This document shows positions 1 to 55,484 of a DNA stretch of 56,226 nucleotides, piece by piece. Source of the stretch: a virus. Below the pieces are notes generated by a model. That model ran no database searches, had not been told where the DNA came from, and saw only the letters and a program-made list of their open reading frames with translations. The DNA is taken from the IMG/VR virus record IMGVR_UViG_3300045988_142515, positions 1 through 56,226 of that record; one strand, 5' to 3'. Numbering within the stretch: the first letter of the stretch is position 1; each line of letters starts with the position of its first letter. The translations under genes were made by a program, and so were the position numbers.

Positions 1-48
1 CCGCCTCCCTCACCTACGACAACGCCAACAGCACCGGCCACGGGGCCG
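1..48. repeat. Terminal overlap: nt 1-48 identical to nt 56179-56226 (circularly closed or terminally redundant genome, unit 56178 bp)
   Basis: Both window ends read ccgcctccctcacctacgacaacgccaacagcaccggccacggggccg. An ORF reads through the junction in frame. Confidence 0.95.
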
Positions 49-128
49 ACACCATCGCCGAAGTCACCAGGGTAGGCGCCCTCGCCCTCGCCTGGCTCAC
101 CCGCTACCAGGACGGAGAAACCCGATGA
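1..128 (+). CDS. MazG-like nucleotide pyrophosphohydrolase paralog 2, C-terminal part (5' part is 55824..56226; junction-spanning gene of about 160 aa)
   Basis: In-frame continuation ..SLTYDNANSTGHGADTIAEVTRVGALALAWLTRYQDGETR, stop TGA 126-128. Clear paralog of the C-terminus of 53714..54361. Confidence 0.7.
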   Translation, partial: ASLTYDNANSTGHGADTIAEVTRVGALALAWLTRYQDGETR

Positions 129-304
129 ACGATACTGACGCGATTGCCGCCAATCTCAAGGAGTATCTGGAAGCAGACTACTTCGCCGGGGCGATCAAAG
201 ATGTCTGCGCACTCATCAACCACATCGTCTTCCTTGAAAAGAAAGTGGCCGACCTGAAAGCCGCAATCGCGAGGATGGGAACAGAAGAAGGAGATTCGGA
301 ATGA
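125..304 (+). CDS. small coiled-coil protein, tandem paralog 1 (59 aa, below the ORF-track cutoff)
   Basis: ATG 125 overlaps the upstream stop (ATGA). Translation MNDTDAIAANLKEYLEADYFAGAIKDVCALINHIVFLEKKVADLKAAIARMGTEEGDSE. Shares the pattern I..L..Y....Y..GA..D..ALI.HI..LE....DL with 558..794. Confidence 0.5.
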   Translation: MNDTDAIAANLKEYLEADYFAGAIKDVCALINHIVFLEKKVADLKAAIARMGTEEGDSE

Positions 305-561
305 CTACCCCCGCCACCCGGTACCCCTGGCTTTGGAACACCAAGGGCATTCGCGACTCGCTGAACGACTACCGGGAAGGAAAAGGCTACGGAGGAGCAC
401 TCCTCGGAGACCCCGAGACCATGGCCGACGACATCGAAGACCTCCTGGACTACGCCGACGATTGCCGGGATAGGATCGCCGAACTCAAGGACACGATTTC
501 CACCCTCCGGGAAGAGAACTACCACCTCAACTCCACGATCCAACTGCTGGAGGAGACATGA
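301..561 (+). CDS. small coiled-coil protein, tandem paralog 2 (divergent)
   Basis: ORF track. ATGA overlaps on both sides. SLNDY..GYGGALLGD...RIAELK is a weaker match to the same family. Confidence 0.6.
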   Translation: MTTPATRYPWLWNTKGIRDSLNDYREGKGYGGALLGDPETMADDIEDLLDYADDCRDRIAELKDTISTLREENYHLNSTIQLLEET

Positions 562-794
562 GCGCCCCATCCAGGATTGTCGACAAGCTCAGGAACTACG
601 AGTACGAGAAGTACGGCTACGACGGTGCGGTTGGCGACATCTACGCGCTCATCCACCACATCGCTGACCTCGAGGAGGAGATCGACGACCTAAGGATCAA
701 GGCTCACGAGTTAGACGCCTGGCGGGGCCGTTACTGCGCGCTCCTAGAGGAGTGCGATGCCTTCCGCCCGCCTGCTCCGGAGGTGGCCGAGTGA
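558..794 (+). CDS. small coiled-coil protein, tandem paralog 3
   Basis: ORF track. KLRNYEYEKYGYDGAVGDIYALIHHIADLEEEIDDLR aligns with paralog 1. Confidence 0.6.
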   Translation: MSAPSRIVDKLRNYEYEKYGYDGAVGDIYALIHHIADLEEEIDDLRIKAHELDAWRGRYCALLEECDAFRPPAPEVAE

Positions 795-931
795 CCTCCT
801 CACTGCTGGCCACGGCCGTCGCCCTGTCCATCAGCCTCCCGATCTTCGCGCTCGGGGAGCGTCTCAGGGCGCGGCAGGGGCGCCGCCTCAGAAACCAGCT
901 CATCCCGCCCAACCGAAAGGACACACCATGA
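791..931 (+). CDS. small membrane protein (46 aa)
   Basis: GTG 791 overlaps the upstream stop (GTGA) and its TGA overlaps ATG 928. VTSSLLATAVALSISLPIFALGERL has one hydrophobic helix followed by a basic tail. Confidence 0.4.
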   Translation: MTSSLLATAVALSISLPIFALGERLRARQGRRLRNQLIPPNRKDTP

Positions 932-1701
932 GCAGATACGACTCATTCACCAGAGTGGTACACAACCAGGAAGGCCTGGAGACCGCCTACCACACCGCCT
1001 CCCCCGCCAAGGTAGAGCGGGTCCTCCTGGAGGGCGGAGCCTTCGTTTTCAGCGCGGACGAGTTCGGGCCGAACCCGGATCCTAAAGTCGAGCTCTATCT
1101 TGGGGAGGGGGCCTGGCTGGAGGTCAGCGACGGCCTCACGCCGCCCGTCCGGCTCACTCTCCCCGAGGAGTACGTCGAGGCCCTGGACCGGGAACCGCTC
1201 AGCCCGGACCGGCCCCGCCGCCTCTACTGGTCGTCGCCCACCCCTCCACACGGGCTGGACGACCCGACCCAGAACCCCTACGGCTACGGTGACGTGACCC
1301 TGTACGTGCCAGAGAGTCTGGAGCCCGCCTACCGTGACAAGGGGTTCTCCGAGTACATGGTCCCAAGTCGCCGCTACCTGGAGATCTGGGAGGGATACGC
1401 GCCGGCAGGGGCCGGGGATACCTCAGAAAGCGGCGATACCTTAGAAGCGGTCGAGTCACCTAACCACTACACCTGGCTCGGTCAGTCGCTTGCCGCGCTC
1501 GGCCTGAGCGACGCGGTCAACGTCGAATCGTGGGACGTGCTAGACGCGGCTTTCCCGTCCGACCCCCTCCTGTGGAACTGTGGCAAATACCTGCTGCGGC
1601 AAGGTCGCAAGGGCGGAAGGGGGAAGCGCCTGGAGGACCTGCGTAAGGCCCGCCAGTACCTAGACCGGCAGATCGCTCAGCTGGCTCGGGGAGGTGAGTG
1701 A
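928..1701 (+). CDS. DUF3310-like domain protein
   Basis: ATG 928 inside ORF 757..1701. C-terminus SPNHY...WNCGKYLLRQGRKGG..LEDLRKARQYLDRQI fits the DUF3310 signature as I recall it (HY ... KYL.R ... DL.KA..YL). Confidence 0.65.
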   Translation: MSRYDSFTRVVHNQEGLETAYHTASPAKVERVLLEGGAFVFSADEFGPNPDPKVELYLGEGAWLEVSDGLTPPVRLTLPEEYVEALDREPLSPDRPRRLYWSSPTPPHGLDDPTQNPYGYGDVTLYVPESLEPAYRDKGFSEYMVPSRRYLEIWEGYAPAGAGDTSESGDTLEAVESPNHYTWLGQSLAALGLSDAVNVESWDVLDAAFPSDPLLWNCGKYLLRQGRKGGRGKRLEDLRKARQYLDRQIAQLARGGE

Positions 1702-1729
1702 CCGCGATCACTGGAATGTGGGGATAGGG

Positions 1730-1770
1730 AGGCTAGCGCCGCACGTGGGGGCGGCGCTAGCCTTATCTTG
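1730..1770 (+). terminator. intrinsic terminator
   Basis: 13-bp perfect stem aggctagcgccgc / gcggcgctagcct, 8-nt loop, followed by tatcttgt. Confidence 0.7.
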
Positions 1771-1807
1771 TACCCAGACAGGTAATCCACTCACAAAGGA
1801 GAGTGAC

Positions 1808-2377
1808 ATGAGCAACACTGAGACCTACCCCGAGAAGGTGGACCGCATCGCCGCCGAGCTGCTGGATGTCCTACGCGACTCGCTCGGCCCCGGCCGACGT
1901 CTGCCCGAGGCCCGCGCGGATTACGCCCGCTACGGCGACCACTCCATCACCGTGCGCGATGGTGAGAGCGGGCGCGTTGAGGTGACCGCCCACCTGACCG
2001 ACTCCGGAGCCGTGCGGGAGTACTCGGCCCGCCTCACTCACGGCGACCAGGACTCCAGGCCGCGGACCACCGTCGGCCCGCTCCGCACGGACTGCTCCGA
2101 GGATCTCGAGGAGCACCCCACCCTCGCCTACGTCCTCCCCCTCATCATCCGCCTGGGTGTGGCGGAGGGGCGGATGAGGAGTGCGGCGCAGGCACTGGGG
2201 AGGGCCGGATTCCTGGCCGAGCGCCTCGGCTCGAGGGTCGTCCTGAGGGAGGCCCGGCCGTGGGGGTCTTACGCCGTCGCTACCGTCGAGCTAGACCCGG
2301 ACAACGGCTCGCTGCACGCTCACGGCCGGGACGCTGCCCAGGTGCGGAGGGTCCTGTACCAGGCCAAGATCTTCTGA
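1808..2377 (+). CDS. hypothetical protein (189 aa)
   Basis: ATG 1808 preceded by aaaggagag, inside ORF 1694..2377. Normal amino-acid composition. Confidence 0.65.
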   Translation: MSNTETYPEKVDRIAAELLDVLRDSLGPGRRLPEARADYARYGDHSITVRDGESGRVEVTAHLTDSGAVREYSARLTHGDQDSRPRTTVGPLRTDCSEDLEEHPTLAYVLPLIIRLGVAEGRMRSAAQALGRAGFLAERLGSRVVLREARPWGSYAVATVELDPDNGSLHAHGRDAAQVRRVLYQAKIF

Positions 2378-2419
2378 GTGATCTGTGACGCGAGCCACTG
2401 AATACGCCCCGCTAGCGGC

Positions 2420-2449
2420 TTGCTGGTGGGGCGTATGCACGCATACGCT
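2420..2449 (+). promoter_or_regulatory. promoter with embedded GTATG-N4-CATAC palindrome; leaderless start at 2456
   Basis: GGCTTGCTG -35 (TTGCTG 2420-2425), 18-nt spacer, TACGCT 2444-2449, then 6 nt to ATG 2456. Palindrome at 2433-2446. Confidence 0.6.
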
Positions 2450-2455
2450 AGAGCC

Positions 2456-2926
2456 ATGAGAACGAACCGCCCCGCCCGCCAGACCGCCATCCACGCCCAC
2501 CGCGCACCGCGCCCAACCCTCGCAGCCATGTTCGTCGCCGCCATCGCCGCAGCGGCCCTCACCATCCTCGTCACCGTCGCCGTGGTCGCCCTGGCCTGCT
2601 ACCTGGCCGAGGCCCCCGCGGCCCCCGCCTCGAGGAGCGGTAGCAGCCAGCAGGCCTCGACCACGTCGACCGCGCCGCTGATCGACCTCACCGCGGGCCG
2701 TGGCGCCGACTCCGCCACCTGCAAGCACGCCCCGCGCTCGCCCCGCTGCCTGCGCGAGGGAGGCACCGCCGCCGTCGTTCGCGACCGGGGCGCGGCCCGC
2801 CCGGTAGGGGGCGGCGACGACCAGGCCGTCCTGCTCGGCGGCGAGGACGCCCGCCCGGCCGAGGTGCCGGGCCGTGTGCCCGGCCGCGGCGGCTGGGTCA
2901 GCGAGGAGGGCCCGTCGCAGGCCTGA
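2456..2926 (+). CDS. membrane protein (156 aa)
   Basis: ATG lies 6 nt after the -10. TM helix LAAMFVAAIAAAALTILVTVAVVALACYLA. In frame with ORF 2420..2926. Confidence 0.6.
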   Translation: MRTNRPARQTAIHAHRAPRPTLAAMFVAAIAAAALTILVTVAVVALACYLAEAPAAPASRSGSSQQASTTSTAPLIDLTAGRGADSATCKHAPRSPRCLREGGTAAVVRDRGAARPVGGGDDQAVLLGGEDARPAEVPGRVPGRGGWVSEEGPSQA

Positions 2927-2967
2927 CCCGGCCGAACCGGCGGAATCGAGCCGATTCGGCTGAGGGC

Positions 2968-2997
2968 TTGCACCCGGCCTGTATGACGGCATACGCT
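2968..2997 (+). promoter_or_regulatory. promoter with embedded GTATG-N4-CATAC palindrome; leaderless start at 3004
   Basis: GGCTTGCAC -35 (2968-2973), 18-nt spacer, TACGCT 2992-2997, then 6 nt to ATG 3004. Palindrome at 2981-2994. Confidence 0.6.
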
Positions 2998-3003
2998 GTA
3001 GCC

Positions 3004-3360
3004 ATGATCGATTCACGAACCGCCCAGCAGCCCGCCAACCACCTCACCACCCAGGAGCCCACTGTGACCCAGACCACTACCCCCTCCGCCCCCTCCGCCG
3101 ACCAGCTGACCGACCAGATGAAAGTGATCGCCGCCACCGCCTCAGCCACCCTCGGCCTGACCCAGGTCAACGAGTGGCGCACCGGCCGGATCGGCCTCAT
3201 CAAGGAGCACAGCCCGCTCCAGGCCCGCATGAGGGTCGAGGACGGCCAGGTCGTGGCCCGGATGACCGGCCGCGAGCGCGGCGGGCGAGAGGTGGCCGGC
3301 CAGATGGCCGACGTGCTGGACGCCCTCGTGCAGCACTTCGAGGCGCCCCTGCCCGCCTGA
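3004..3360 (+). CDS. hypothetical protein (118 aa)
   Basis: ATG 3004 inside ORF 2968..3360. MIDSRTAQQPANHL... Confidence 0.6.
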   Translation: MIDSRTAQQPANHLTTQEPTVTQTTTPSAPSADQLTDQMKVIAATASATLGLTQVNEWRTGRIGLIKEHSPLQARMRVEDGQVVARMTGRERGGREVAGQMADVLDALVQHFEAPLPA

Positions 3361-3390
3361 CCGGACGGCCGCCTCCCGGCGGCTTGCAGC

Positions 3391-3428
3391 AGGCCCCGCT
3401 CACCTGAGGAGGTGGGCGGGGCCTTTTC
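3391..3428 (+). terminator. intrinsic terminator
   Basis: aggccccgctcacc / ggtgggcggggcct stem (one mismatch), followed by tttt. Confidence 0.65.
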
Positions 3429-3540
3429 ATGCCCGTGAAGGGGTCTAGGAGCGTTTCTGACGGACTTTCATGGCCGGGTAGGGCCCGTCATACGGGCGGC
3501 AGGTTCTAAGCCGTCAGAGGGGCTTACACGGCCTCACAGG
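3428..3540 (+). repeat. 113-nt conserved non-coding element, copy A (copy B at 39940..40052)
   Basis: Three blocks sit at identical offsets in both copies: catgccc (0), gagcgYttctgacggacttt (+21), tcagaNNggcttacacggc (+86). The spacers between them are divergent. Confidence 0.7.
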
Positions 3541-3855
3541 CGGCGGTCCCTCCGTAGGAGGGACGCGAGGTGCGCGGCGGGGGCGGTCCGAGGAGGGGAG
3601 GAGGAGGGGAAGGGCGCTCGGAGAGGCGTACGTCCTTAGAGGCCGTCCGAGCCCCGTAGACGGGCGAACGCCCCGGTACCTAGGTGCAGGTACCGGGGCG
3701 TAGGTGTTAGGCCGTCAGCGAGGCTTACAGGGCGGTTAGAAGGCGCTTCAGGGCGAGGGGCCGAGGGGCGTGGGCGGCGGCGACCGCGTAGCGGTCCTGC
3801 CAGCGTAGGAGCTGGTGCGGGTGCACAACCCGGAGGGCTATCCGGGGCGGGGCGG

Positions 3856-3877
3856 AACCTGGGAGAACCCTGGGAAC
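3856..3877 (+). repeat. 22-bp direct repeat aacctgggagaaccctgggaac (second copy 4160..4181)
   Basis: Exact match by eye. The two copies bracket a low-GC segment. Confidence 0.85.
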
Positions 3878-3915
3878 GTAGTGTGGCGCCAGCCACAGGT
3901 CCTTACTATATCTAT

Positions 3916-3946
3916 GGCTTCCCCTCCCCTACGGGGAGGGGAAGCC
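3916..3946. terminator. perfect 14-bp hairpin, candidate bidirectional terminator
   Basis: ggcttcccctcccc tac ggggaggggaagcc, with A/T-rich sequence on both sides. Confidence 0.55.
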
Positions 3947-3999
3947 TATTAGAGAATATGTAACTTAGCATACAACCGCGCCATTCCAACGGAAAGTAC

Positions 4000-4014
4000 G
4001 TATGCTCTGCATAC
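4000..4014. promoter_or_regulatory. GTATG-N5-CATAC operator-like palindrome inside the AT-rich island
   Basis: gtatgctctgcatac. Extra half-sites lie nearby (gcatacaac 3968, ctcatacgtc 4070). Confidence 0.45.
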
Positions 4015-4135
4015 ATCAGACGGTAGCAAGTGTATGACAAGTTACATGTGACGTAGATCTCTTGCCCGCCCTCATACGTCACTTTGAGAAATTAATTTGA
4101 GTGACGGCATTCACATACCTGGAGGTACAGCGGGT

Positions 4136-4182
4136 GAGAAACCTGGGAGAACCCTGAGAAACCTGGGAGAACCCTGGGAACC
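4136..4182 (+). repeat. 20-bp tandem repeat (iteron-like) gagaaacctgggagaaccct x2.3
   Basis: Units at 4136-4155 and 4156-4175 plus a partial unit. Related copies at 3856 and 4441 (agaaacctggga). Confidence 0.85.
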
Positions 4183-4665
4183 GCTACGGGCTCGGAGAGG
4201 GGCCGGCGGTCGTCGTGGAGCCGGTCAGGGAGGCGCCTCGAAGGGGCGGGAGCCTGTACCGATCCGGTCAGGGACGTCTACGTACCGCCCCCGTGCCGCC
4301 GGTCGGACCGAAGCCGCCGTCGCGGACGGAAAGCTGGGGCGGGACGCTGGGCAGCTCTGGGGGCGATGGCGGAATACAGCGGAAAAGTCGGACGATGTAT
4401 GCCGTCATAACGGACTTTTCGTTGCAATCCCAACGGTCAGAGAAACCTGGGACGGAATTAGGCATGCCGTGTACCGTGTGCCGAGGCCGTACCCGTTGGC
4501 TGGGCTAGGCGTGGCCGCGGTCACACAAAATGGCGGGATAGGCGTAGGCACTCCGTGCCGCTGCCGGTCCGCATCCTGCTTGCCCCCGTCCCGGCGAAGC
4601 CGGGCCGCGGCTGCGCGCGAGCGTCGCGGCCGCCAGGTGCATGACACGGTGCACCCTCATCGCTA

Positions 4666-4703
4666 CGGCGCCAGCGCTCCGCTGCGCTCCGCGGCGAGGG
4701 CGC
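4666..4703. other. hairpin H3: GGCGCC/GGCGCC stem carrying the conserved loop cgctccgctgcgctccgc
   Basis: The loop core is identical to the H1 loop (39595..39638) and nearly identical to the H2 loop (39794..39835), but the stem sequence is different. Confidence 0.5.
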
Positions 4704-4984
4704 CTGGGCGATGAGTGCGCAGCGATGTCATACACCCGGCCGCGAGCACTCGCTCCATGGGCCTAAGGCCCTGGCGGAGGCGTGCATGCCAGGGTGCACA
4801 CCGCCTGCGCCTAGGGGCTCCGGCGGGTGCAGCCATGGCATACACGCCCCGGCAGGGGAGGGCTGTGCGGGGCGGCTCACCTCGGGGCGGGGTGTCGATC
4901 GGTCGCTGCGCTCCCTCTCGAACCGCCCCGGGCTCGGGGTGCCCGCTACGCCCTCGGAGGTAGGGCGAGGTCGGGGAGGGCGTC

Positions 4985-5206
4985 TCAGCCGAGGGGGCTG
5001 AACGGGCTGGCAAGGAGGCCTCCCAGACAGAGGGCAGCCCCGAGCAGGGTCGCACACACCAGAGCCAGGAAGAGGATGTCCGGGCCGGTGGGGGAGCCTG
5101 TCAGGCCGCGAGAGGGGTCGGGATGGCGGTAGCCGGGGCAGGCGGGGGGCTGCGAGCCTCCGACGGCCTTGTAACGCCGGTGGCGGGGGCGGTAGGGGGT
5201 AGACAT
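4985..5206 (-). CDS. small membrane protein (73 aa)
   Basis: ATG at 5206 preceded by AAGGAGA plus a 5-nt spacer. C-terminal TM helix ILFLALVCATLLGAALCLGGLLA. In frame with ORF 4985..5647. Confidence 0.55.
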   Translation of the reverse strand: MSTPYRPRHRRYKAVGGSQPPACPGYRHPDPSRGLTGSPTGPDILFLALVCATLLGAALCLGGLLASPFSPLG

Positions 5207-5277
5207 GTCAGGTCTCCTTAAAAGGCTGTGAGGGGCTGTGAGACGGTCGGGAGGACTGTGAGGGCTGAGAGGACGGC

Positions 5278-6093
5278 CTAGCGCCGGACCAGGCCGGTCA
5301 TCGAGCCGTCCTCCTCGAGGACCACGGCGTGGCGGGCGTCGGAGCTGGCGTGGGCCAGGCAGGGCATGGGGGTGTCTGGGGCGGTGGTGCAGCGGGGCAG
5401 GTCGAGAGGGGACGCTGAGGGGTCGTTCTTCGAGTAGGGGGCGCAGGTGTCGGAAGTGACCCAGCCCGGGGCGGGAGCCGAGGCGGGGGCCGGGGAGTGA
5501 GCGGAAGTGATGGGAGAGGGGGTGGTAACGCGCGTTAGCGTGCAACCCTCCGGGGAGGCGGGGGTGGTGGGGTGGGAGGGCGTGGCGGAGGGGTATGGGG
5601 TCCCGGCCTGCTCCGGAGTCGAGGTTCCGGCGCCGGTTCCGCGGCACTCACGCTGGGCCTGATTCCAGTCCTGAGCGGCTAGGGCGTGGCAGTAGGCCCG
5701 AGCGGTGCGGTGGGCGTTGATGGCGGCCACGTTGCAGGCCCCGAGCAGGGCGGCTACGAGGGCGGCGCCGATGGCGAGCTGCATGAGGGAGGGGTGCCAC
5801 CTCATGGAGGGGCGGCGCAGGATGCCGGGGCGGCCCATGTCCTGGAGGGGGGTCTCCTGCTCGGCCTGCTGGGAGGGGGCCTGCTCGGTCGGGCCAGGCC
5901 GGGATGGGGCGGCGAGCGGCAGCTCCTCGGTCGGCGTGCGGTCGCGCCAGCCGGCGAAGGGGGCGGCGTGGCTGGGGTGGGCGGGCCGGCCCGTCGGGTA
6001 GGTGCCCGTCGGGTAGGTGCCCGTCGGGTAGGTGCCCGTCGGGCGGTCGGTGTGCGGGCGGTCGGTGTGCGGGGCGCTGGGGTGGTTGCTCAT
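5278..6093 (-). CDS. membrane-anchored repeat protein (271 aa): HTDRPx2 and TGTYPx3 repeats, one TM helix, Pro/Thr/Ser-rich Cys-containing C-terminal domain
   Basis: Leaderless ATG 6093 lies 6 nt after the -10 of the minus-strand promoter. MSNHPSAPHTDRPHTDRPTGTYPTGTYPTGTYP..., TM helix LMQLAIGAALVAALLGACNVAAI. Confidence 0.6.
   Translation of the reverse strand: MSNHPSAPHTDRPHTDRPTGTYPTGTYPTGTYPTGRPAHPSHAAPFAGWRDRTPTEELPLAAPSRPGPTEQAPSQQAEQETPLQDMGRPGILRRPSMRWHPSLMQLAIGAALVAALLGACNVAAINAHRTARAYCHALAAQDWNQAQRECRGTGAGTSTPEQAGTPYPSATPSHPTTPASPEGCTLTRVTTPSPITSAHSPAPASAPAPGWVTSDTCAPYSKNDPSASPLDLPRCTTAPDTPMPCLAHASSDARHAVVLEEDGSMTGLVRR
5990..6073. repeat. two adjacent in-frame 15-bp tandem arrays (cccgtcgggtaggtg x3.6; cggtcggtgtgcggg x2)
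   Basis: Read directly. They encode the TGTYP and HTDRP pentapeptide repeats of the minus-strand gene. Confidence 0.9.
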
Positions 6094-6099
6094 GCCCCT

Positions 6100-6129
6100 A
6101 CTGTATGACGGCATACGGGGTGGGTGCAA
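6100..6129 (-). promoter_or_regulatory. minus-strand promoter with GTATG-N4-CATAC palindrome; leaderless start at 6093
   Basis: On the minus strand: TTGCAC (6129-6124), 18-nt spacer, TACAGT (6105-6100), then 6 nt to the ATG. Palindrome at 6103-6116. Confidence 0.6.
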
Positions 6130-6400
6130 GTCCGGGACCGAAGGCGGCCGGGCCAGGCCGGGCTCCCTCGTCCTGGGAGGGGTCGAGGCGCTCGCGGGGC
6201 GGCGCCGGCCCCTCGTGAAGCTATGCCTATTTAAACCGCGCGTACGCGGGCGCGCCTGTGGTGGCACGGCCCTCCGGCCGCGGTGTGGGACCTAGGTCCT
6301 ACCAGAGAGGGGCGGGCCGGAGGGGCGGGGTGGCAGGCCGCGAGCGCGAGACGGCCTGCTGTGTACGGTGTACGCGGGGAGGTGGCTTGACCGAGGGGAG

Positions 6401-6475
6401 GTGTGGGGTGGGGTGGAGTGGTGGTGTGGGGTGGGGTGGAGTGGTGGTGTGGGGTGGAGTGGTGTGGTGGAGGGC
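6401..6475 (+). repeat. G-rich 23-bp tandem repeat gtgtggggtggggtggagtggtg x2.7-3 (G-quadruplex-capable)
   Basis: Units at 6401-6423 and 6424-6446 plus a degenerate third unit. Five or more GGGG runs. Confidence 0.85.
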
Positions 6476-6615
6476 GCAGCCCCTTCGTGCTCGGAAAGGG
6501 CACCCCTATGGATAGGCCCCTATACATAGGCATGCACGATGGGGACGAGGCAGGCCGGCCGGCCGCCCTTCGCTCATAGGATCCGCGAGCGCGGGGCCGT
6601 CCACTCATAGGTCTT

Positions 6616-6656
6616 CCTGATGAGGGAGGGGCGATCGATGCCCCTTATCGATCAGG
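6616..6656. other. 41-nt composite hairpin centred on gatcgat
   Basis: cctgat-gagg-gaggggc-gatcgat-gcccctt-atcg-atcagg. Three ATCGAT sites lie within 6633-6715. Confidence 0.5.
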
Positions 6657-6742
6657 CCCGGACCGAGGGGGCGAGCCCGCGCCCATGGGGTTTCCTAATG
6701 TTTACGGAGAGATCGATAGGGAGGGGGTGGGCTTGGCCCCCC

Positions 6743-6748
6743 TATAAT
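6743..6748 (+). promoter_or_regulatory. consensus TATAAT -10 box upstream of the 6792 gene
   Basis: cccctataattcat. No convincing -35 box. Confidence 0.35.
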
Positions 6749-6777
6749 TCATACCAATAACCCACCCTCAACCTTTT

Positions 6778-6791
6778 GTATGGGAGCATAC
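6778..6791. promoter_or_regulatory. GTATG-N4-CATAC palindrome abutting start codon 6792
   Basis: gtatgggagcatac immediately followed by ATG. Confidence 0.45.
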
Positions 6792-7310
6792 ATGTCACCT
6801 TCATCCCCGACCTCGCCGTCTGCGGGGGCCCGCGAGGCGCTCACCGACGCGGCCCTGCTGGCCGTCGACACGGCGCTCACGGTCGGCGCGGCGCTGCGCG
6901 TCACCCGCTTCGCCACTACCGACGTCCTGGGCGGCTGGGCCCTGTCGGACCCCCTGCACCGGCTGGCGAACCGCTTAGAGCCTGCCACCCCTCCCCACCC
7001 GTTCGGCTACCTAGCCCCGCCCTCGGCGCCCCTGCACCGCCTCGTGTCGGCCCTGGACTGCCCGTTCTGCGTCGGCACTCAGGCCGCCCTCGTGATCGGC
7101 GCGGCTCTGGCCGCCACGTCGTCCCGCGCCGTCACCCCTTCCGGCGCCCCTCTCCCCCGCTCGCGACACTCCACCGCCGGCCGCCTCGTCCGAGCGGCCT
7201 GCGCCGCGCTCGGCGCCGCCTACGTCGTGGGCCACGTCTCGCACAGGATCGACTCACTGGCGTCGGCAGCCTCCCAGCCCGCCCCCTACCAGACGAAAGA
7301 CTCGAAGTGA
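6792..7310 (+). CDS. membrane protein, DUF1360-like
   Basis: ALRVTRFATTDVLG and CPFCVGTQAALVIGAAL resemble the DUF1360 pattern as I recall it. ATG 6780 is an alternative start. Confidence 0.5.
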   Translation: MSPSSPTSPSAGAREALTDAALLAVDTALTVGAALRVTRFATTDVLGGWALSDPLHRLANRLEPATPPHPFGYLAPPSAPLHRLVSALDCPFCVGTQAALVIGAALAATSSRAVTPSGAPLPRSRHSTAGRLVRAACAALGAAYVVGHVSHRIDSLASAASQPAPYQTKDSK

Positions 7311-9112
7311 CAGCCTCGCCCACCTCCGCCGCGACCTCAGCCGTCTCTAGCCTCGACGCCTACCGCTCCCGCGCCCTGGCGCGCCGCGGCGTCATCGTCC
7401 AGCAGCCGCCGGCCGCTCCGCCTGCCTCACCTGCACCCCGCACCCTGACCGCCGCGGCCTCACGCCCTGCCGCCTCGGGACGGGGCGCCTCCGGCTCCTC
7501 AGCCACCTCTCCCCGGCGGCAGTCCCCCAGCACCCGCTCGTGGCAGGCAGAGGCGTGGGCGGCCTACGACGAGGTCGGCGAGGAGAGGTTCCTGGCCTCG
7601 ACCCTCGCCGGGCGCCTGAGCCAGGCCCGCCTCTACGTCCAGCACAAACCAGCCACAGGCCCGCGCTCCTCGCTGCGTGACGACGGGATGGACGCGACCG
7701 ACACCGCCCCCTCCCCTACGGCCACCCTCGCTGAGGCGGTCCTGGCGGCCCTCGGTGCGTCCCAGCAGGACCTGGGCCAGATGCTCCAGCGCCTGGCCAC
7801 GAATCTGTTCGTGGCCGGTGAGGGGTGGCTCGTAGGCGTGCCGCGCCACGTTATCGACGAGGTCTCCCCGTCCTCGGCGCCGGCCGTGACCGCGCCTAGC
7901 CCGGATCCGTCGCTGACCGATCTCGTGTGGCGCGTGCTGGCCGTGACCGAGGTCTCCTCGGTCGGCTCCGACGGGCGCACCGTACGGCTGAACCTGGGCA
8001 CCGACGGCTCGGCTCCGGTAGAGGTCGCCTCCAGCGACGTCTACATGGTCCGCGTCTGGCGCCCGCACCCGGCGCGCTACTGGGAGGCTGACTCGCCCAC
8101 GCGGGCCTGTCTGCCGATCCTGCGCGAGCTCATCGGGCTCACCCGCCACATCAGCGCCCAGATCGACTCCCGCCTGGCCGGCGCCGGCATCCTGGTCGTG
8201 CCCTCCTCGGCCTCGGCCGCTCTGGCCTCGGACGCGGCCGACTCCAGTGCCTACGGCGCGCCTGACCCGTTCGTGGCCGCGCTCATGGACTCGATGCTGC
8301 GGCCGATCGAGAACCGGGACGACGCCTCTGCCGTCGTGCCGCTCGTCGTGACCGTGCCGGACGAGGCGGCGGACAAGATGAGCCACCTCACGTTCTCCTC
8401 GGCCCTGGACGCCGGCGCCCGCGACCTGCGCGACGAGGCTATCCGGCGCCTGGCCCTGGCCCAGGACGCGCCGCCGGAGCTCCTACTCGGCTCGGGCGCC
8501 ATGAACCACTGGGGCGCGTGGCTGACGCGTGAGGACACGGTCACCACGCACATCGAGCCGGTCCTGGCCCTCATCTGCGACGCGCTGACCTCCCAGTACC
8601 TTCGTCCGGTCCTGCTCTCGGCGGGCCTATCAGAGGACGAGGTGCGCACGCTCTCCGTCGGCTACGACGTCTCCGCCCTCGTGGCCCGGCCGAACCGCTC
8701 GGAGGAGGCGCTGAACCTCCACCGCGCCGGCGCCGTGTCGGACGAGGCGCTGCGTGAGGCCAGCGGGTTCGACGACTCCGACGCCAAGCCCCTGGACGAG
8801 CGGGCCCTTATGCAGGCCCTGGCCATGGTCACCAAGCGGCCGGACCTGATGGGCACGATCGGCATAGGCCCGCTCACGCAGGAGATCCTCAAGGCCTACG
8901 AGGGAGACTACTCGGCCCCGTCCGAGGCCCTCCGCGCCCTGGCCGTGCCTCCGGCCGCCCCCGACGCCCCCGCTCCTGACCAGGACGGCCCCGGCCGTCC
9001 CCCAAGTGGCGCCGACTCGGCCGAGCCGGGTAGGGTGCCAGGTAGCGAGGCGCCGGTCTCATCCGGCGACGCCCGCCCGGAGTCATCCACCACGGCCCCT
9101 GCTGGGGCCTGA
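7307..9112 (+). CDS. portal protein (601 aa)
   Basis: GTG 7307 overlaps the upstream stop (GTGA). Size and position just before the MuF/protease gene fit a portal. The part of ORF 6776..9112 upstream of 7307 is Arg/Pro-rich junk. Confidence 0.7.
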   Translation: MTASPTSAATSAVSSLDAYRSRALARRGVIVQQPPAAPPASPAPRTLTAAASRPAASGRGASGSSATSPRRQSPSTRSWQAEAWAAYDEVGEERFLASTLAGRLSQARLYVQHKPATGPRSSLRDDGMDATDTAPSPTATLAEAVLAALGASQQDLGQMLQRLATNLFVAGEGWLVGVPRHVIDEVSPSSAPAVTAPSPDPSLTDLVWRVLAVTEVSSVGSDGRTVRLNLGTDGSAPVEVASSDVYMVRVWRPHPARYWEADSPTRACLPILRELIGLTRHISAQIDSRLAGAGILVVPSSASAALASDAADSSAYGAPDPFVAALMDSMLRPIENRDDASAVVPLVVTVPDEAADKMSHLTFSSALDAGARDLRDEAIRRLALAQDAPPELLLGSGAMNHWGAWLTREDTVTTHIEPVLALICDALTSQYLRPVLLSAGLSEDEVRTLSVGYDVSALVARPNRSEEALNLHRAGAVSDEALREASGFDDSDAKPLDERALMQALAMVTKRPDLMGTIGIGPLTQEILKAYEGDYSAPSEALRALAVPPAAPDAPAPDQDGPGRPPSGADSAEPGRVPGSEAPVSSGDARPESSTTAPAGA

Positions 9113-32931: not shown

Positions 32932-35085
32932 TCAGGAGTAGAGCTCCCAAGCGGAGGCGTTCCCTCCCTGGGCCTCAAAGGTGAGGATTGCCGGCTTGGT
33001 GGAGTCCCCTGAGATGTTGGTCCACCAGTCTGAGCCGCGGTCGGCGGAGGGGCAGGAGATGATCCAACGCGAGTCCCCGACCTGGCGGACACCGAAGTTG
33101 TGCCAGTGCCCGTGGACAAGGATCCTGGCGTCGTAGAGGCCGCTACGGCGGCCGAACGCGAGGTCTCTGAACCATCCGGGCACCTTCGACTGTGAGCCTG
33201 CCAGGTGGCCGTGGGTGAAGCCGATGCGGGTCCCGTCCGCGGCGTCCACGGTAACGGCCTCCTCCCACTTCTCGGGACGGTGGAAGGTGACGTGCTCATA
33301 TCCTGGGCGGTCGGCGATGATGTCTTCGATGTTGTGGGAGATCATGATGCCGAAGTCGTCGTCTGGGGCGTTGGCGCGGGAGTTCTTCCCCGTACCGGTG
33401 CGCACCGCGCAGTGGTTGGACGGGACGGCCACGTAGTAGAGGGACTCGCACAGCGGCGCGAGCAGCTGGACGGCCTCGGCGTAGAGGCGTTGGACAGTGC
33501 GAATCTGATCGGTCAGGGACAGGTCGTTGGTCTGGGCCTGGCTGGCGACGTTCCAGAAGCCCTCTGTCGAGTCCCCGACGTCTGCGAGGATGATGCGCTG
33601 ATACGGGGCCGGCTCTGTGAGGTCGTCTGCGATGTCCTTCAGGGCGCGGCGCACGAGCCGGACCGTGTCCTCCGTGCCGCCACCACTTCCACAGTTGTGC
33701 GTGAGTGTCAGTTCCCGGCCAGCCAGATACTCCCCACCCTCGACGGTGATGCACTGAGCCATGCCCCGGCCCGCAGGAACCACGTCGATCACGGACAGGC
33801 GATGGTCCCGCCTCTCTGTAGACGGCCGCTGATTGGCGGCCTTGCGAGGGAGTCGGAACATCGGCCGGTCTGCTCGGAACTGAATGCGCCAGTGTTGCTT
33901 GCACTGGGCATCGCCGTAGTGTCCGATAGCCGTAGTTACCTTGGGGGTTACTCCCTCCAAGTGGAGGAGGGTGAGGACGCCGTCGATGATGTTCTTGTTG
34001 GTGTTGCTAAACTCGATGGCGCCTGACCTAGGGTTGCAGTAGCCGTCGGAGTCCATGAGGCCCTGGAGGAGTGCGAGGCGCTGCTCAGACGAGGCTTGCA
34101 GATACGCCTCGGGGATGTGCTTGTTGTCCTTCAGTCCCGCCAGTCGAAGATCCCGGGTTAGGCCGTCTACGACGACGGTGCCCAGGCCCTCCCGGGACTT
34201 GATCTCGTGCCCAAGGGCGAGCAGGTGGTCACGATCCACGGCTCCCTTGGTGATACGCCCGCCCGAGGCTCGCCCGTCCCCCAGCCAGAACCCCAGGATG
34301 TAGGGGTCGATGGGGAGGCTGGCCTCGGGCAGCTCGATCGGGCTATGCGCCCACACCTTGAAGGGCCGCATCCTACCGGCCCGCATTCGGGTGATCTTCA
34401 TGATCTCCTCAGTCGTGAGAGTCATCTCACGGTCCTCCCACCGGGACGTGTCTCCCTCAGGGTGCATGCGGCGACGGCCGCTCCATAGGTGGCCTGAGGT
34501 AGCCCGCAGCGCTCGCCCCTCGGGGAAGGTGACGTCGAAGAGGTCCTGCTCGGTCGAGCCGGTCACTGCAAGGATGCGCTTCGGCTTACCGTCCCGGCCA
34601 TAGACGTGCATGCCCGGGCGGAGGTCCCCGTGGCGCTTCCAGCCGTCGGTCGTCAGGACCGGGGTTGAGTCTTCAAGAGCTTTGCCTACCTGAAAGTCCG
34701 CCAGGCAGACCACCGGCGTCGACTCGATCGGGCCGGACGGGCTGGTCGCCCTAGGCAGGAGAGGCTCGCGAAAGACGGGCTCCAAGTCCTCGTAGGAGAG
34801 GCGCTTAGCCTCCTCCATCTCAACGGCTCCGGGGCGGTACTCGATCTTCTCGTACGAGCCGTCGGCGAGGCGGACGGTCTTGCCGCGCTTCGTGATGGCA
34901 CCTACGGGGAGGTCGAAGAACGCGTCGCGGTCGAACTCATCCCGGCCCTTGCGTTTCAGGGCGCGCCTATGCCGGCGCACGGTCGCCTCGGAGGTGTTGA
35001 ACTCCTCGGCCAGGTCGACGTTCGTCTTGCGCTCTCGCTCGGGGAGCTCGTCGTTGGCGATGATCGCCTCGTCCAGCGGACTCAT
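32932..35085 (-). CDS. HTH-domain calcineurin-like metallophosphoesterase precursor interrupted by an intein (717 aa)
   Basis: N-terminal HTH NVDLAEEFNTSEATVRRHRRAL. MPP motifs LADFQVGK | ILADVGDSTE, VPSNHC, FTHGH, LVHGHWH. RBS aggagaccc. Confidence 0.8.
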   Translation of the reverse strand: MSPLDEAIIANDELPERERKTNVDLAEEFNTSEATVRRHRRALKRKGRDEFDRDAFFDLPVGAITKRGKTVRLADGSYEKIEYRPGAVEMEEAKRLSYEDLEPVFREPLLPRATSPSGPIESTPVVCLADFQVGKALEDSTPVLTTDGWKRHGDLRPGMHVYGRDGKPKRILAVTGSTEQDLFDVTFPEGRALRATSGHLWSGRRRMHPEGDTSRWEDREMTLTTEEIMKITRMRAGRMRPFKVWAHSPIELPEASLPIDPYILGFWLGDGRASGGRITKGAVDRDHLLALGHEIKSREGLGTVVVDGLTRDLRLAGLKDNKHIPEAYLQASSEQRLALLQGLMDSDGYCNPRSGAIEFSNTNKNIIDGVLTLLHLEGVTPKVTTAIGHYGDAQCKQHWRIQFRADRPMFRLPRKAANQRPSTERRDHRLSVIDVVPAGRGMAQCITVEGGEYLAGRELTLTHNCGSGGGTEDTVRLVRRALKDIADDLTEPAPYQRIILADVGDSTEGFWNVASQAQTNDLSLTDQIRTVQRLYAEAVQLLAPLCESLYYVAVPSNHCAVRTGTGKNSRANAPDDDFGIMISHNIEDIIADRPGYEHVTFHRPEKWEEAVTVDAADGTRIGFTHGHLAGSQSKVPGWFRDLAFGRRSGLYDARILVHGHWHNFGVRQVGDSRWIISCPSADRGSDWWTNISGDSTKPAILTFEAQGGNASAWELYS
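33694..34680 (-). mobile_element. intein (329 aa, residues A136-N464) with a LAGLIDADG homing endonuclease; class-3-like signature
   Basis: Starts ALEDSTPVLTTDGW (Ala1). Block B TSGHLW (Trp at B:12). LAGLIDADG motifs LGFWLGDGRA and LLQGLMDSDGY. Block F AQCITVE. Ends LTLTHN followed by C+1. Confidence 0.8.
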
Positions 35086-35154: not shown

Positions 35155-35214
35155 ATCCATTAACCGTTTCGGGACCTACGTGTCGCACATCACCTGAGTA
35201 ACTATTGTCAGGCA

Positions 35215-35243
35215 TTGCCCCCGCCTCACTTCCAACCTACAGT
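35215..35243 (+). promoter_or_regulatory. promoter of the replication operon; leaderless start at 35250
   Basis: TTGCCC, 17-nt spacer, TACAGT, then 6 nt to ATG 35250. Confidence 0.55.
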
Positions 35244-35249
35244 TGAGGC

Positions 35250-35447
35250 ATGAGCACTTCAACATTCGTCATCACCGGCCACGCCTGCCGAGGCTGCAAG
35301 CACTGCGAGCAGGGGGCTCAGCTCGTAGGTCTCAAGCTGATCCACTGGACACTCGCCCTGTTTACCAGCTTCATCTGGCTGTTGGTTCCGCTGTTCTACA
35401 AGCGGTGCCTATGCTGTGGCCACAGCCTGTACCTGAACCAGCACTGA
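35250..35447 (+). CDS. small Cys-rich membrane protein (65 aa)
   Basis: CRGCKHC ... CLCCGH plus the TM helix WTLALFTSFIWLLVPLFY. Confidence 0.55.
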   Translation: MSTSTFVITGHACRGCKHCEQGAQLVGLKLIHWTLALFTSFIWLLVPLFYKRCLCCGHSLYLNQH

Positions 35448-38289: not shown

Positions 38290-38384
38290 CTGAGACTTGC
38301 GTCTCAAATCCTCAAAACCGGGAATACGTTGAAAACGCTGGGAAATCTGCCTATTCCCGTAGTCACTTGAGACCCGCACCACAC
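38290..38384 (+). repeat. ~95-bp direct repeat R1 (TGAGAC-ttgc-GTCTCA hairpin plus GGGAATA...TATTCCC inverted repeat)
   Basis: Aligned by eye with R2 at roughly 70% identity, 156-bp period. Confidence 0.75.
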
Positions 38385-38445: not shown

Positions 38446-38540
38446 CTGAGACTTGCGTCTCACTTTCAGAAAACGGGAATACGCCTGGAAACACTGGAAA
38501 AGGTCCGTATTCCCAAATCCCTCAGAGACCTGTATCACAC
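38446..38540 (+). repeat. ~95-bp direct repeat R2
   Basis: ctgagacttgcgtctca...gggaatacg-N22-cgtattccc...ctcagagacc. A partial third copy (ccgtattcccaaatc) lies at 39312-39330. Confidence 0.75.
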
Positions 38541-38565: not shown

Positions 38566-39057
38566 ATGCGCAACGCGCTTCGCACCTACCCCGCCCGCAA
38601 GGCCACGATCCAGGGCCGCCCCGCCGTCCAGGTCCGGGACACGAGGAACGAGATCGAGTACTGGGTCGAGATCACTGACGAGCCGGACTCCGGCGGCCGC
38701 TACCACGTCGTAAACCTCCTGTGCCGCCCAGATACGGGCGTTCGCTTCCCCGACAGTGTCCCCCACAGGACCCTCTGTGAAATCGCCGCAAACGTGCTTG
38801 AGAGGGCCGAGAAGCCCGCACGAGGGGGCAACGCCTACCGCGGCGCGCCTGTCGAGACGCTGCGCAAGCTGATCGAGGAGGGCAAGACCCGCACCGACAT
38901 CGCCAAGGAGCTGGGTCGAAGCATCTACACCGTGGACTCCTGGCTGCGCAGGGCCCGCCGCATCGACCCCGAGTTCCCGGGCACGATGACGAAGAGCGGG
39001 ACACGTCGCCCGGCTCGTAACAAGACCCCCTACGCGAGGGCGCCGAAGGACGCCTGA
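38566..39057 (+). CDS. HTH DNA-binding protein (163 aa)
   Basis: RBS ctaggagg. C-terminal HTH RTDIAKELGRSIYTVDSWLRRAR. Confidence 0.65.
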   Translation: MRNALRTYPARKATIQGRPAVQVRDTRNEIEYWVEITDEPDSGGRYHVVNLLCRPDTGVRFPDSVPHRTLCEIAANVLERAEKPARGGNAYRGAPVETLRKLIEEGKTRTDIAKELGRSIYTVDSWLRRARRIDPEFPGTMTKSGTRRPARNKTPYARAPKDA

Positions 39058-39067
39058 GCCCCTGACC

Positions 39068-39100
39068 GAAGGGCCCCAGCCTTCGCGGCTGGGGCCCTTT
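39068..39100 (+). terminator. intrinsic terminator
   Basis: gaagggccccagcc ttcgc ggctggggccctt, followed by ttg. Confidence 0.75.
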
Positions 39101-39240
39101 TGCGTGCCCTGAATCACTCCCTCAGGCCTCTGTCCATATGCTGAGACAGTTGTCCGCATAGCGGGAAAGTGACCCAAGACACGCCTGATTTGCCCTTCCG
39201 CAGCCCCCCATCTCACATTCTGGACACATGTATGCTGGTC

Positions 39241-39254
39241 GTATGGCGTCATAC
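39241..39254. promoter_or_regulatory. GTATG-N4-CATAC palindrome
   Basis: gtatggcgtcatac. No supported gene lies next to it. Confidence 0.4.
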
Positions 39255-40978: not shown

Positions 40979-41022
40979 TTGAGGTTCTAATACCCTTCGG
41001 GTAGTGTATGCGGGGCATACAC
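40979..41022 (+). promoter_or_regulatory. promoter (TTGAGG, 17-nt spacer, TAGTGT) overlapped by the GTGTATG-N5-CATACAC palindrome
   Basis: -35 at 40979-40984, -10 at 41002-41007, palindrome at 41004-41022. RBS agaggaga precedes ATG 41040. Confidence 0.55.
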
Positions 41023-53648: not shown

Positions 53649-53693
53649 TTGCATCTCCTGACGGGGTGGACGTATGATTTCATACGTCCACCC
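53649..53693 (+). promoter_or_regulatory. promoter GGCTTGCAT, 18-nt spacer, TATGAT, embedded in a perfect 30-bp palindrome (53664-53693)
   Basis: gggtggacgtatga tt tcatacgtccaccc. Contains GTATG-N4-CATAC at 53672-53685. Confidence 0.55.
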
Positions 53694-55455: not shown

Positions 55456-55484
55456 TTGCTCTGGGACGTATGCCGGCATACGCT
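55456..55484 (+). promoter_or_regulatory. promoter GGCTTGCTC, 17-nt spacer, TACGCT, with GTATG-N4-CATAC, inside a ~49-bp imperfect palindrome
   Basis: gcgggcttgctctgggacgtatgccggcatacgcttagggcaagcccgc. Confidence 0.55.

Follow-up and report, generated by a model that had tools for sequence, protein, structure and literature searches.

What does the short palindrome GTATG-N4/5-CATAC do in the genome of an uncultured oral phage? The palindrome recurs in IMG/VR virus record IMGVR_UViG_3300045988_142515, of which positions 1 to 56,226 were analyzed (56,226 bp; this whole stretch is called the window below). An original prediction, made from the sequence alone, had placed it in sigma70-like promoters with a GGCTTGC -35 block, several of them leaderless, and had proposed that one regulator reads it. 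Our analysis of the window and its relatives leads us to think that GTATG-N4/5-CATAC probably is a protein operator which acts negatively on these promoters. One sequence-specific, probably dimeric, phage-encoded repressor would bind the palindrome. Its operators would be embedded in SigA-type promoters, used by the host RNA polymerase, in a family of uncultured actinobacterial phages from the human mouth.

Distribution and conservation of the palindrome

All nine predicted copies of the palindrome are exact. Seven have a four-base spacer (GTATG-N4-CATAC at 2433, 2981, 6103, 6778, 39241, 53672 and 55468) and two a five-base spacer (GTATG-N5-CATAC at 4000 and 41006); when spacings of 0 to 11 were checked in the window, copies were found at N4 and N5 only. 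Dinucleotide shuffles gave 0.00 copies against the nine observed, and the number expected from the half-site frequency is 0.043, an enrichment of about 210-fold, in agreement with the earlier estimate of well under one chance occurrence. The window has 49 GTATG/CATAC half-sites, 18 of which belong to the nine palindromes. The degenerate copy already noticed at 4397 is the sole one-mismatch copy in the window. That every copy is intergenic was also borne out, as all nine fall outside the stretches with coding (third-position G+C) periodicity. The module had been described as genome-wide, but its distribution is regional. Seven copies lie within the 9.4 kb terminase-portal interval (from 53.6 kb, over the window ends, to 6.8 kb) and the remaining two at 39.2-41.0 kb. 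No copy occurs in 6.8-39.2 kb or 41.0-53.6 kb, and 32 kb of structural, lysis and polymerase genes are palindrome-free.

The palindrome is conserved in related phages. Relatives were collected as 75 IMG/VR loci retrieved by the terminase protein and 44 more retrieved by the protein of g41040 (41040-41384). The first 77 related loci (1.02 Mb) contain 250 copies with N4, 27 with N5 and 14 with N3, at most one copy at each other spacing from 0 to 12, and no everted CATAC-Nx-GTATG. In the terminase loci every copy is downstream of the terminase. About 290 copies in total are found at syntenic sites on more than 100 related phage contigs. An unbiased count over all palindromes with 5-mer arms in the family loci ranked GTATG-N4 at the top, with 280 distinct contexts. 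When flanking sequences were clustered, orthologous classes matching the window sites emerged, and within a class the ten arm bases are invariant while the flanks have diverged. The nearest named relative, Dulem virus 38 (circular, 56,032 bp, from lemur saliva, about 82% identical across the replication module), has eight copies, which are syntenic and match the window in their N4/N5 assignment. We found nothing specific in the literature on this motif or this phage family.

Searches of large collections were done with the whole leaderless promoter-operator module, since the 10-base dyad alone is too short for them. No match was obtained in one genome each of 185,579 bacterial and archaeal species, a search in which neither a host nor a prophage was identified. 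The 64 matches in IMG/VR are all on contigs of this phage family. This confinement favors a phage-encoded cognate protein. It also speaks against the idea that the phage exploits a host transcription factor which binds the palindrome, so that accessory-gene expression would follow a host signal. No phage protein can be linked to this motif in particular, bacterial dimeric regulators commonly have the 5-N4-5 geometry, and a second dyad at some of these promoters (GTGAC-N4-GTCAC, see below) resembles the CRP/GlxR core, which makes host factors at these promoters plausible. In addition to the restriction to one phage family, absolute invariance amid diverging intergenic sequence is typical of a co-inherited cognate pair. 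We therefore consider a host factor unlikely.

Promoters and the register of the dyad

Six of the window sites fit the SigA-type pattern TTGNNN-(16-19 nt)-TANNNT, TTGNNN/TANNNT being the actinobacterial promoter pattern. In the order of the list below, they are TTGCTG-18-TACGCT, TTGCAC-18-TACGCT, TTGCAC-18-TACAGT, TTGCTC-17-TACGCT, TTGCAT-18-TATGAT and TTGAGG-17-TAGTGT. The palindromes, with the promoter and start-codon elements beside them, are as follows.

2433..2446, plus strand: putative operator palindrome GTATGCACGCATAC of P2433, leaderless class; -35 TTGCTG 2420-2425 within GGCTTGC 2417-2423, 18-nt spacer, -10 TACGCT 2444-2449, ATG 2456
2981..2994, plus strand: putative operator palindrome of P2981, leaderless class; -35 TTGCAC 2968-2973, -10 TACGCT 2992-2997, ATG 3004
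6103..6116, minus strand: putative operator palindrome of a predicted leaderless promoter; GACTTGC (plus-strand positions 6126-6132), -10 TACAGT (6100-6105), ATG 6093
55468..55481, plus strand: putative operator palindrome of P55468; -35 TTGCTC 55456-55461, 17-nt spacer, -10 TACGCT 55479-55484, GAGGAA 55514-55519, ATG 55522
53672..53685, plus strand: putative operator palindrome of P53672; -35 TTGCAT 53649-53654, -10 TATGAT 53673-53678 overlapping the left arm, AGGAG 53704-53708, ATG 53714
41006..41020, plus strand: putative N5 operator palindrome of P41006; -35 TTGAGG 40979-40984, -10 TAGTGT 41002-41007 overlapping the left arm, GAGGAG 41029-41034, ATG 41040
6778..6791, plus strand: palindrome GTATG-GGAG-CATAC; Shine-Dalgarno GGGAG 6782-6786 in the spacer, ATG 6792 abutting the right arm
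39241..39254, no strand assigned: palindrome with no clear promoter, within about 2 kb of non-coding DNA (39058-41001); a further GTATG lies at 39230
4000..4014, no strand assigned: N5 palindrome centered between the arms of an AT-rich inverted repeat (3958-3974 / 4031-4047); further half-sites at 3969 and 4032
4397..4410, no strand assigned: the degenerate copy GTATGCCGTCATAA

The proposed -35 block GGCTTGC is exact at four of the six promoter sites; the 6103 site has GACTTGC and the 41006 site CCTTGAG. The block is present at 2417, 2965, 53646 and 55453, and also at 44281 and 48693, where, as originally noted, the full palindrome is lacking. Seven other places in the window have GGCTTGC without any connection to a promoter, and thus the block alone is not specific. 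The -10 had been expected over the right half-site, and this is true at 2433, 2981, 6103(-) and 55468, whereas at 53672 and 41006 it overlaps the left arm. In the first four sites (class A) the palindrome covers about -23 to -10, and its right arm gives the TAC of a -10 of the form TACNNT. In the other two (class B) it covers about -13 to +5 of the predicted promoters. At 6778 it is at about +30 and encloses the ribosome-binding site. The dyad-symmetric site thus overlaps the RNA polymerase footprint of the predicted promoters, as a repressor operator does.

At 2456, 3004, 6093(-) and 35250 the ATG lies exactly 6 nt past the TANNNT hexamer, and the positions and hexamers given in the original prediction were correct. 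Coding periodicity begins at these ATGs. Because only 6 nt separate -10 and ATG, there is no room for a Shine-Dalgarno sequence, and the four transcripts are predicted by this geometry to be leaderless, with the ATG at the predicted +1. The leaderless class, which includes the 2433, 2981 and 6103(-) sites, comprises 79 distinct sequences in the family and reads (G/A)CTTGC-N9-GTATG-N4-CATAC-NNT-N6-ATG. TTG is placed 13 nt before the palindrome in 71 of the 79, the third base past the palindrome is T in all of them, and ATG is at the fixed distance in 78, the remaining one having GTG. The class therefore has TTGCNN, a 17-18 nt spacer, TACNNT and six bases before the ATG, in line with the actinobacterial TTGNNN/TANNNT pattern. 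The information profile of these sites is near-maximal at GCTTGC, both arms, the -10 T and CATGA, and low elsewhere.

The other classes keep the dyad in their own registers. The class of site 55468, after helix-turn-helix (HTH) gene 54962-55444 (50 sequences), has the promoter geometry of the leaderless class but a 30-nt leader with GAGGAA. In the post-terminase class of site 53672 (64 sequences), the -35 TTGCAT is 22-23 nt before the palindrome, and the -10 TATGNT is made of the left arm and two spacer bases. The second of these bases, position 6 of TATGNT, is T in 64/64 post-terminase sites, as compared to 1/79 and 1/50 in the other two classes. Since one dyad is found in different registers relative to the -10, the dyad, and not the -10, appears to be the unit under selection. 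These register-specific constraints are the strongest evidence both for the promoters and for the whole dyad as the selected unit.

Could the palindrome instead be a site for activation or promoter specificity, either by MerR-like remodeling or by the sigma-region-4-like protein of gene 38566-39057 redirecting RNA polymerase to GGCTTGC promoters? The class A dyad does lie in a rather long spacer of 17-18 nt with a weak -10, the extended -35 GCTTGC is unusually conserved, and protein 38566 is near the threshold of Sigma70_r4_2 (23.5 bits vs. a cut-off of 25.7 bits). MerR-type promoters, however, have spacers of 19-20 nt with the dyad wholly inside, whereas the dyad here overlaps the -10. The class B dyad lies over the -10 and the start, and the 6778 dyad lies downstream of its promoter, positions which fit repression. 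The same -35 block is found without the palindrome in the promoters at 35250 (leaderless), 44281 and 48693, and protein 38566, with 163 residues, has no sigma region 2. An activator site is therefore very improbable. The dyad-free promoter with leaderless geometry at 35203-35252 (TTGCCC-17-TACAGT-N6-ATG, with the ATG at 35250) heads the rightward replication genes and is divergent from minus-strand gene 32932-35085. A phage-encoded RNA polymerase reading these promoters was rejected, as no such gene is present in the annotation of the relative or among the 40 window proteins to which our protein family scans were applied.

The individual sites differ in their surroundings. Every element of P2433 is conserved across the phage family. 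The 6103 site precedes gene 6093..5278(-), which encodes a membrane protein of 271 residues; this gene has minus-strand third-position G+C periodicity, and the same start was independently called in a public contig. P53672 heads the operon of g53714, g54566 and HTH54962, the gene at 54962-55444. P41006 heads g41040 and the primase-polymerase/replication module; its palindrome is conserved, always as N5, in 40 of 42 distinct upstream sequences. It is kept where g41040 is just 69% identical and the spacer is AGAGT instead of CGGGG, and one divergent relative has lost the left arm. The 6778 site is about 30 nt downstream of a perfect TATAAT (6743-6748) and starts g6792, with the portal and structural genes coming next. 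Twelve distinct relatives with variable flanks have an identical GTATG-GGAG-CATAC-ATG, and a protein bound there would form a roadblock or block translation at the start of the structural genes. At the position of the 39241 site, some relatives have two N3 dyads.

The 4000 and 4397 sites (3983-4017 and 4394-4428) are inverted copies of 35 nt, 74% complementary and 376 nt apart, within a 1.9-kb stretch that lacks coding periodicity and has eight further half-sites. Each copy has an outward-facing T-rich run after it, and together they look like the paired ends of a small unit. This stretch (3361-5277) and 39058-41001, about 2 kb each without third-position G+C periodicity, are unusual for a phage and are rich in inverted and direct repeats (GAGAAACCTGGGAGAACCC at 3849, 4133 and 4153; CGGGCGTGTCG- and TATTCCCAAAT-style motifs; extra half-sites). 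Each might be an origin, a packaging site or a locus for non-coding RNA; Rfam gave no match in either.

Hairpins and further dyads

The original prediction overlooked that the palindromes at 2433, 53672 and 55468 are parts of strong hairpins, each placed directly past the upstream stop codon.

2402..2437, plus strand: 15-bp hairpin ATACGCCCCGCTAGC-GGCTT-GCTGGTGGGGCGTAT; -30.4 kcal/mol, z -4.9; no U-tract
53664-53693, plus strand: 13-bp hairpin with the palindrome at its tip; -27.2 kcal/mol, z -6.6; follows the terminase stop (53644)
55449-55499, plus strand: 23-bp hairpin with the palindrome at its tip; -40.1 kcal/mol, z -5.7; just past the stop of HTH gene 54962-55444

In the hairpin at 2402-2437, the -35 extends over the loop and the 3' arm, whose base is the left half-site. 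The stem is 97.7% paired in 37 distinct sequences of the 2433 type, with compensatory changes at 6 of 15 pairs. None of 500 shuffles matched this pairing and covariation, and slid controls collapsed. In the post-terminase hairpin, five core pairs are identical in 29 of 29 sequences, and compensatory changes were found at 7 of the 10 outer pairs. The core of this hairpin is thus selected as sequence, and the outer stem for pairing. The extended stems of the 2433-type and 53672-type sites thus behave as conserved structured RNA, and the five invariant core pairs do not. Other sites are different. The 2981 site has no significant structure (fold z +0.84), and the bare dyad at 6778 gives a weak hairpin (-5.7 kcal/mol, z -0.8).

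None of the three strong hairpins is a classical intrinsic terminator, because the sequences that follow them (GCACGCATAC, GATCTACG and ACCCCAAC) are not T-rich, unlike those of canonical hairpin-plus-T-tract terminators elsewhere in the genome, e.g., at 3391-3424 and just past 39057. A terminator scan of positions 1-7400 gave, among the palindrome sites, just a weak match at 4016-3998(-). We infer that the three hairpins may be U-less terminators, processing sites or 3'-end stabilizers that overlap the next promoter.

These hairpins raise the question whether the palindrome is mainly an RNA (or extruded DNA) hairpin serving termination, processing (e.g., by RNase III), mRNA stability or translational control, with no DNA-binding repressor at all. 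The three stems are strong, with z of -4.9 or lower in each case, are backed by compensatory changes and follow stop codons directly; 6778 has a Shine-Dalgarno sequence in the loop and its ATG abuts the stem; loop lengths of 3-5 are tolerated; and some GTGAC-N4-GTCAC copies are hairpin tips as well. A purely structural element, however, would be expected to covary throughout. Across about 290 copies none of the five arm pairs varies, and the stem pairs next to them covary freely. The bare palindrome at 6778 folds weakly, and the 2981 site is unstructured. In the leaderless class, the palindrome is upstream of the inferred start and therefore absent from the mRNA of that gene. The stems also lack the U-tracts which the genome has elsewhere, and Rfam contains no matching family. 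A function mainly as a hairpin is thus improbable.

Two more dyads with 5-N4-5 geometry were found, neither of which had been mentioned before. The second dyad, GTGAC-N4-GTCAC (GTGA-N6-TCAC), is exact at 44248-44261 and has one mismatch at 2385-2398, 48660-48673, 38272, 39169, 4101, 4511 and 40126. With up to one mismatch, 14 copies are present in the window as compared to 2.5 expected, and the family loci have 130 copies at N4 vs. at most 7 at any other spacing. The dyad begins 32-34 nt before the -35 block (2385 before 2417, 44248 before 44281, 48660 before 48693), which centers it at about -64 from the predicted starts, an activator-like position. GTGA-N6-TCAC is presumably the core of the actinobacterial CRP/GlxR consensus. 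About 40% of the family copies are tips of long hairpins, such as 44240-44269 (-25.1 kcal/mol). The third dyad, GAGAC-N4-GTCTC, occurs at 38292-38305 and 38448-38461, upstream of HTH gene 38566-39057, and has 37 copies at N4 in the family vs. at most 5 at any other spacing. Each window copy is followed by the inverted repeat GGGAATAC...GTATTCCC. GAGAC-N4-GTCTC may be the own operator of protein 38566-39057.

A more far-reaching reading is that the program of this phage family is a code of three 5-N4-5 dyads, each with its own factor, and that the GTATG dyad is a double-stranded DNA operator and an RNA signal read by the same protein. GTATG may then act in core promoters, GTGAC about 64 nt upstream of starts and GAGAC upstream of the HTH gene, and the transcribed GTATG dyad, as an invariant hairpin tip, may signal termination, processing or translation. 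If true, one protein would couple promoter repression to transcript-end formation at terminator-promoter junctions. We regard this as a speculative extension with little likelihood at present.

Candidate regulators, phage context and known systems

Which protein would read the palindrome? The original prediction named two HTH proteins (38566 and 54962), a ribbon-helix-helix protein at 41040 and the HTH domain of a phosphoesterase. The two HTH proteins are real, but neither is tied specifically to the palindrome. The 40 proteins scanned include no phosphoesterase or associated HTH.

54962-55444, plus strand: best candidate regulator (HTH54962), 160 residues, two long helices and then a C-terminal HTH; PHROG HTH families, weak HTH_Crp_2
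38566-39057, plus strand: second candidate regulator (HTH38566), 163 residues, C-terminal HTH_23 / sigma-70 region-4-like HTH

HTH54962 is our best candidate for the reader of the palindrome, though only a tentative one. It is favored because its operon, which starts at P53672 and ends 24 nt before the operator at 55468, is bracketed by two operators; because the two long helices of its predicted structure, followed by the HTH, would suit dimerization; and because the rival HTH38566 is preceded by a different dyad, GAGAC-N4-GTCTC. The AlphaFold2 (AF2) model of HTH54962, a putative coiled coil with an HTH, is all-helical, with a predicted confidence (pLDDT) of 74. Recognition helices of both HTH proteins are conserved across homologues of 52-96% identity, and R131, Q132 and T133 in that of HTH54962 are invariant; the 120 HTH54962 homologues listed are all at least 83% identical. 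Of the 75 related terminase loci, 69 have HTH54962. Among the remaining six, five end before the gene is reached, and the other is a motif-free distant relative (L075). HTH54962 was rejected as a member of the CRP/FNR family, since it has no cyclic nucleotide-binding (cNMP) domain and its HTH_Crp_2 score of 20.7 bits is below the 27-bit cut-off. A CRP-like mode of reading, suggested by a likeness of the recognition helix in which Gln would read the A of GTA, was unsupported by the PDB profile search and Foldseek and is a lead only. HTH38566 reaches the Pfam HTH_23 cut-off, and no paralogy between the two HTH proteins was detectable.

The protein of g41040 is disfavored as the reader. It had been called ribbon-helix-helix, but no Pfam match was obtained even at E 10, and no PDB sequence match. 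Its AF2 monomer, of low confidence (pLDDT 47), has a strand at 46-48 and helices at 54-67 and 71-82 (beta-alpha-alpha). Homologues differ greatly in the residues that this putative strand turns outward (S/E/R/T/V, T/R/S/V/K and T/H/R), while the upstream operator keeps GTATG/CATAC. Only close homologues, of at least 67% identity, were found. Each of the three candidates occurs in every locus that covers its position, so that co-occurrence with the motif does not discriminate among them.

In the mechanism that we propose, a bound HTH dimer would occlude the -10 and the start site and so block RNA polymerase. The regulator would switch off or buffer three targets: the small transcription units of the terminase-portal interval, the operon to which it belongs and the replication-module promoter. 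This predicted logic resembles that of Cro in the lytic cycle. The hairpins would insulate transcription units from read-through. A leaderless open reading frame is translatable only from its own 5'-terminal AUG, and such insulation would make sense for this reason.

Several points weigh against a phage repressor acting at these sites. Although one operator in SigA-type promoters, several of them leaderless by geometry, is strongly supported by sequence comparison over about 120 related loci, a generic E. coli-type scan of positions 1-7400 (at least 9 of 12 matches to TTGACA/TATAAT) found none of these promoters, so that the promoter call rests on the looser TTGNNN/TANNNT pattern and on conservation. 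The transcription starts are deduced from spacing alone. The spacing varies among N3, N4 and N5, which rigid dimers tolerate poorly and hairpin loops easily. Three sites are in strong covarying hairpins and one encloses a ribosome-binding site, and an RNA-level role is possible for some copies of the palindrome. The 4000, 4397 and 39241 sites have no assignable promoter, and 6778, which heads the structural genes, fits poorly with a simple early shut-off repressor. Both HTH proteins co-occur with the motif wherever their position is covered and both have conserved recognition helices, and neither test separates them. Finally, HTH54962 had no significant match in PDB; the best HTH by sequence was the gamma-delta resolvase DNA-binding domain (E 0.19), and the best Foldseek match had E 0.16.

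The window has 63-72% G+C, is coding nearly all on the plus strand, and corresponds, circularly permuted, to a human oral metagenome contig of 56,282 bp (ENA ERZ989385 k127_44973). Its main regions are listed below.

6.8-32.8 kb: g6792, portal, then head, tail and lysis genes
32932-35085, minus strand: large gene
36-50 kb: genes of DNA polymerase, prim-pol, SNF2 helicase, PD-(D/E)XK nuclease, AAA_24 and a single-stranded DNA-binding (SSB)-like protein
51.3-53.6 kb: small and large terminase genes
53.6 kb, over the window ends, to 6.8 kb: small unknown genes and non-coding DNA, about 9.4 kb

The terminase has weak similarity to Microbacterium phage terminases, and this, together with the high G+C and the oral origin, points to an oral, probably Actinomyces-like, actinobacterium as the host. 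No integrase or CI-like repressor was seen among the proteins scanned and in the annotation; the phage therefore looks lytic. The large terminase gene (51947-53644) and the portal gene (about 7330-9112) are about 9.4 kb apart, with small accessory genes and non-coding DNA in the interval; in Microbacterium phage Megan just two small genes lie between them. Megan, the closest cultured relative by terminase, was uninformative as a comparator, with no palindrome in 50 kb and another gene order. The whole window was also scanned with Rfam (gathering thresholds) and for tRNAs, with no matches.

Gene 32932-35085(-), the sole large minus-strand gene, encodes 717 residues with a terminase/primase-like ATPase region, LAGLIDADG_3 (residues 334-386) and a C-terminus resembling an exonuclease. 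In Dulem virus 38, the syntenic minus-strand gene encodes just 445 residues, and this suggests, from the sequences, an intein or homing-endonuclease insertion in the window gene. Plus-strand G-rich tandem repeats (GGGGT-type; a 23-nt unit, x3.4) and a CCCCTATACATAGG repeat are found at 6393-6470 and 6503-6531, in the interval from gene 6093(-), which is divergent, to the TATAAT at 6743. Within gene 6093..5278(-), perfect 15-nt tandem repeats (x3.7 and x2.3) at 5989-6073 encode PTGTY-type peptide repeats near the N-terminus of the predicted membrane protein.

The arrangement can be compared with known phage systems. The lambdoid Cro/CI operators (OR/OL, at the right and left early promoters) are short dyad sites over the -35/-10 of early promoters, in several copies. 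P41006 with its operator heads a small regulator-like gene and then replication genes, as PR-cro-O-P does. Autoregulation is implied in our case as well. Unlike lambda, there are no clustered tripartite operators here but about ten scattered single promoters, several targets are leaderless by geometry, the candidate regulator has no detectable Cro/CI homology, and the proteins scanned include neither an integrase nor a CI-like one. The conserved inverted repeats (CIRs) of Streptomyces phage phiC31 are present in multiple copies at early promoters and are read by the c repressor; those promoters are not SigA-like, and phiC31 is temperate with a defined repressor gene. Our case is similar in being an actinophage with multiple inverted-repeat copies at promoters and one proposed repressor, with unrelated sequence. 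Early mRNAs of phages have intercistronic hairpins, e.g., RNase III sites in T7, or terminator-promoter junctions. The hairpins at 2402-2437, 53664-53693 and 55449-55499 are likewise exactly between transcription units, but they overlap the next promoter, hold an invariant sequence core and have no U-tract.

The stoperators of Cluster A mycobacteriophages are 13-14 bp long and orientation-dependent, and the phages are temperate. The stoperator (L5/Bxb1 gp71-type) is described as asymmetric, with a monomeric repressor that terminates elongation at numerous genome sites (PMC9283540). The likeness is one repressor with many sites in short intergenic spaces and repression both at promoters and downstream of them, the latter comparable to our +30 site at 6778 (PMC9283540, PMC6550527). 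A stoperator system proper was ruled out against the same description, as GTATG-N4/5-CATAC is a perfect dyad and the stoperator is asymmetric (PMC9283540). The closest published actinophage parallel is that of Cluster O mycobacteriophages, in which a 17-bp palindrome, TGTTCGG-N3-CCGAACA, has more than 30 mostly intergenic copies genome-wide, the function of the repeat being unknown (PMC4351075). These phages also have predicted SigA-like promoters with +1 at the start codon and a terminase displaced from other structural genes (PMC4351075). Invariant arms, a variable center, intergenic copies, SigA-like leaderless promoters and a displaced terminase are thus shared (PMC4351075). The nine copies here, however, are in a fixed register to a promoter or start codon, in which the Cluster O copies are not placed in the part of PMC4351075 available to us, and the sequences are unrelated.

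The system is therefore familiar in kind, multi-dyad phage repressors and leaderless SigA promoters of actinophages being well known, and nothing is overturned. What is gained is a concrete and testable regulon map, with about ten promoters, one operator sequence and two or three candidate regulators, of a phage family that is abundant in the human mouth but uncultured. Hundreds of protein clusters and dozens of near-complete contigs belong to this family. The compact cassettes of promoter, operator and leaderless open reading frame could serve as regulated expression elements in high-GC actinobacteria. For the phage family itself, invariant operator cores over covarying hairpins would represent two constraints on one sequence.

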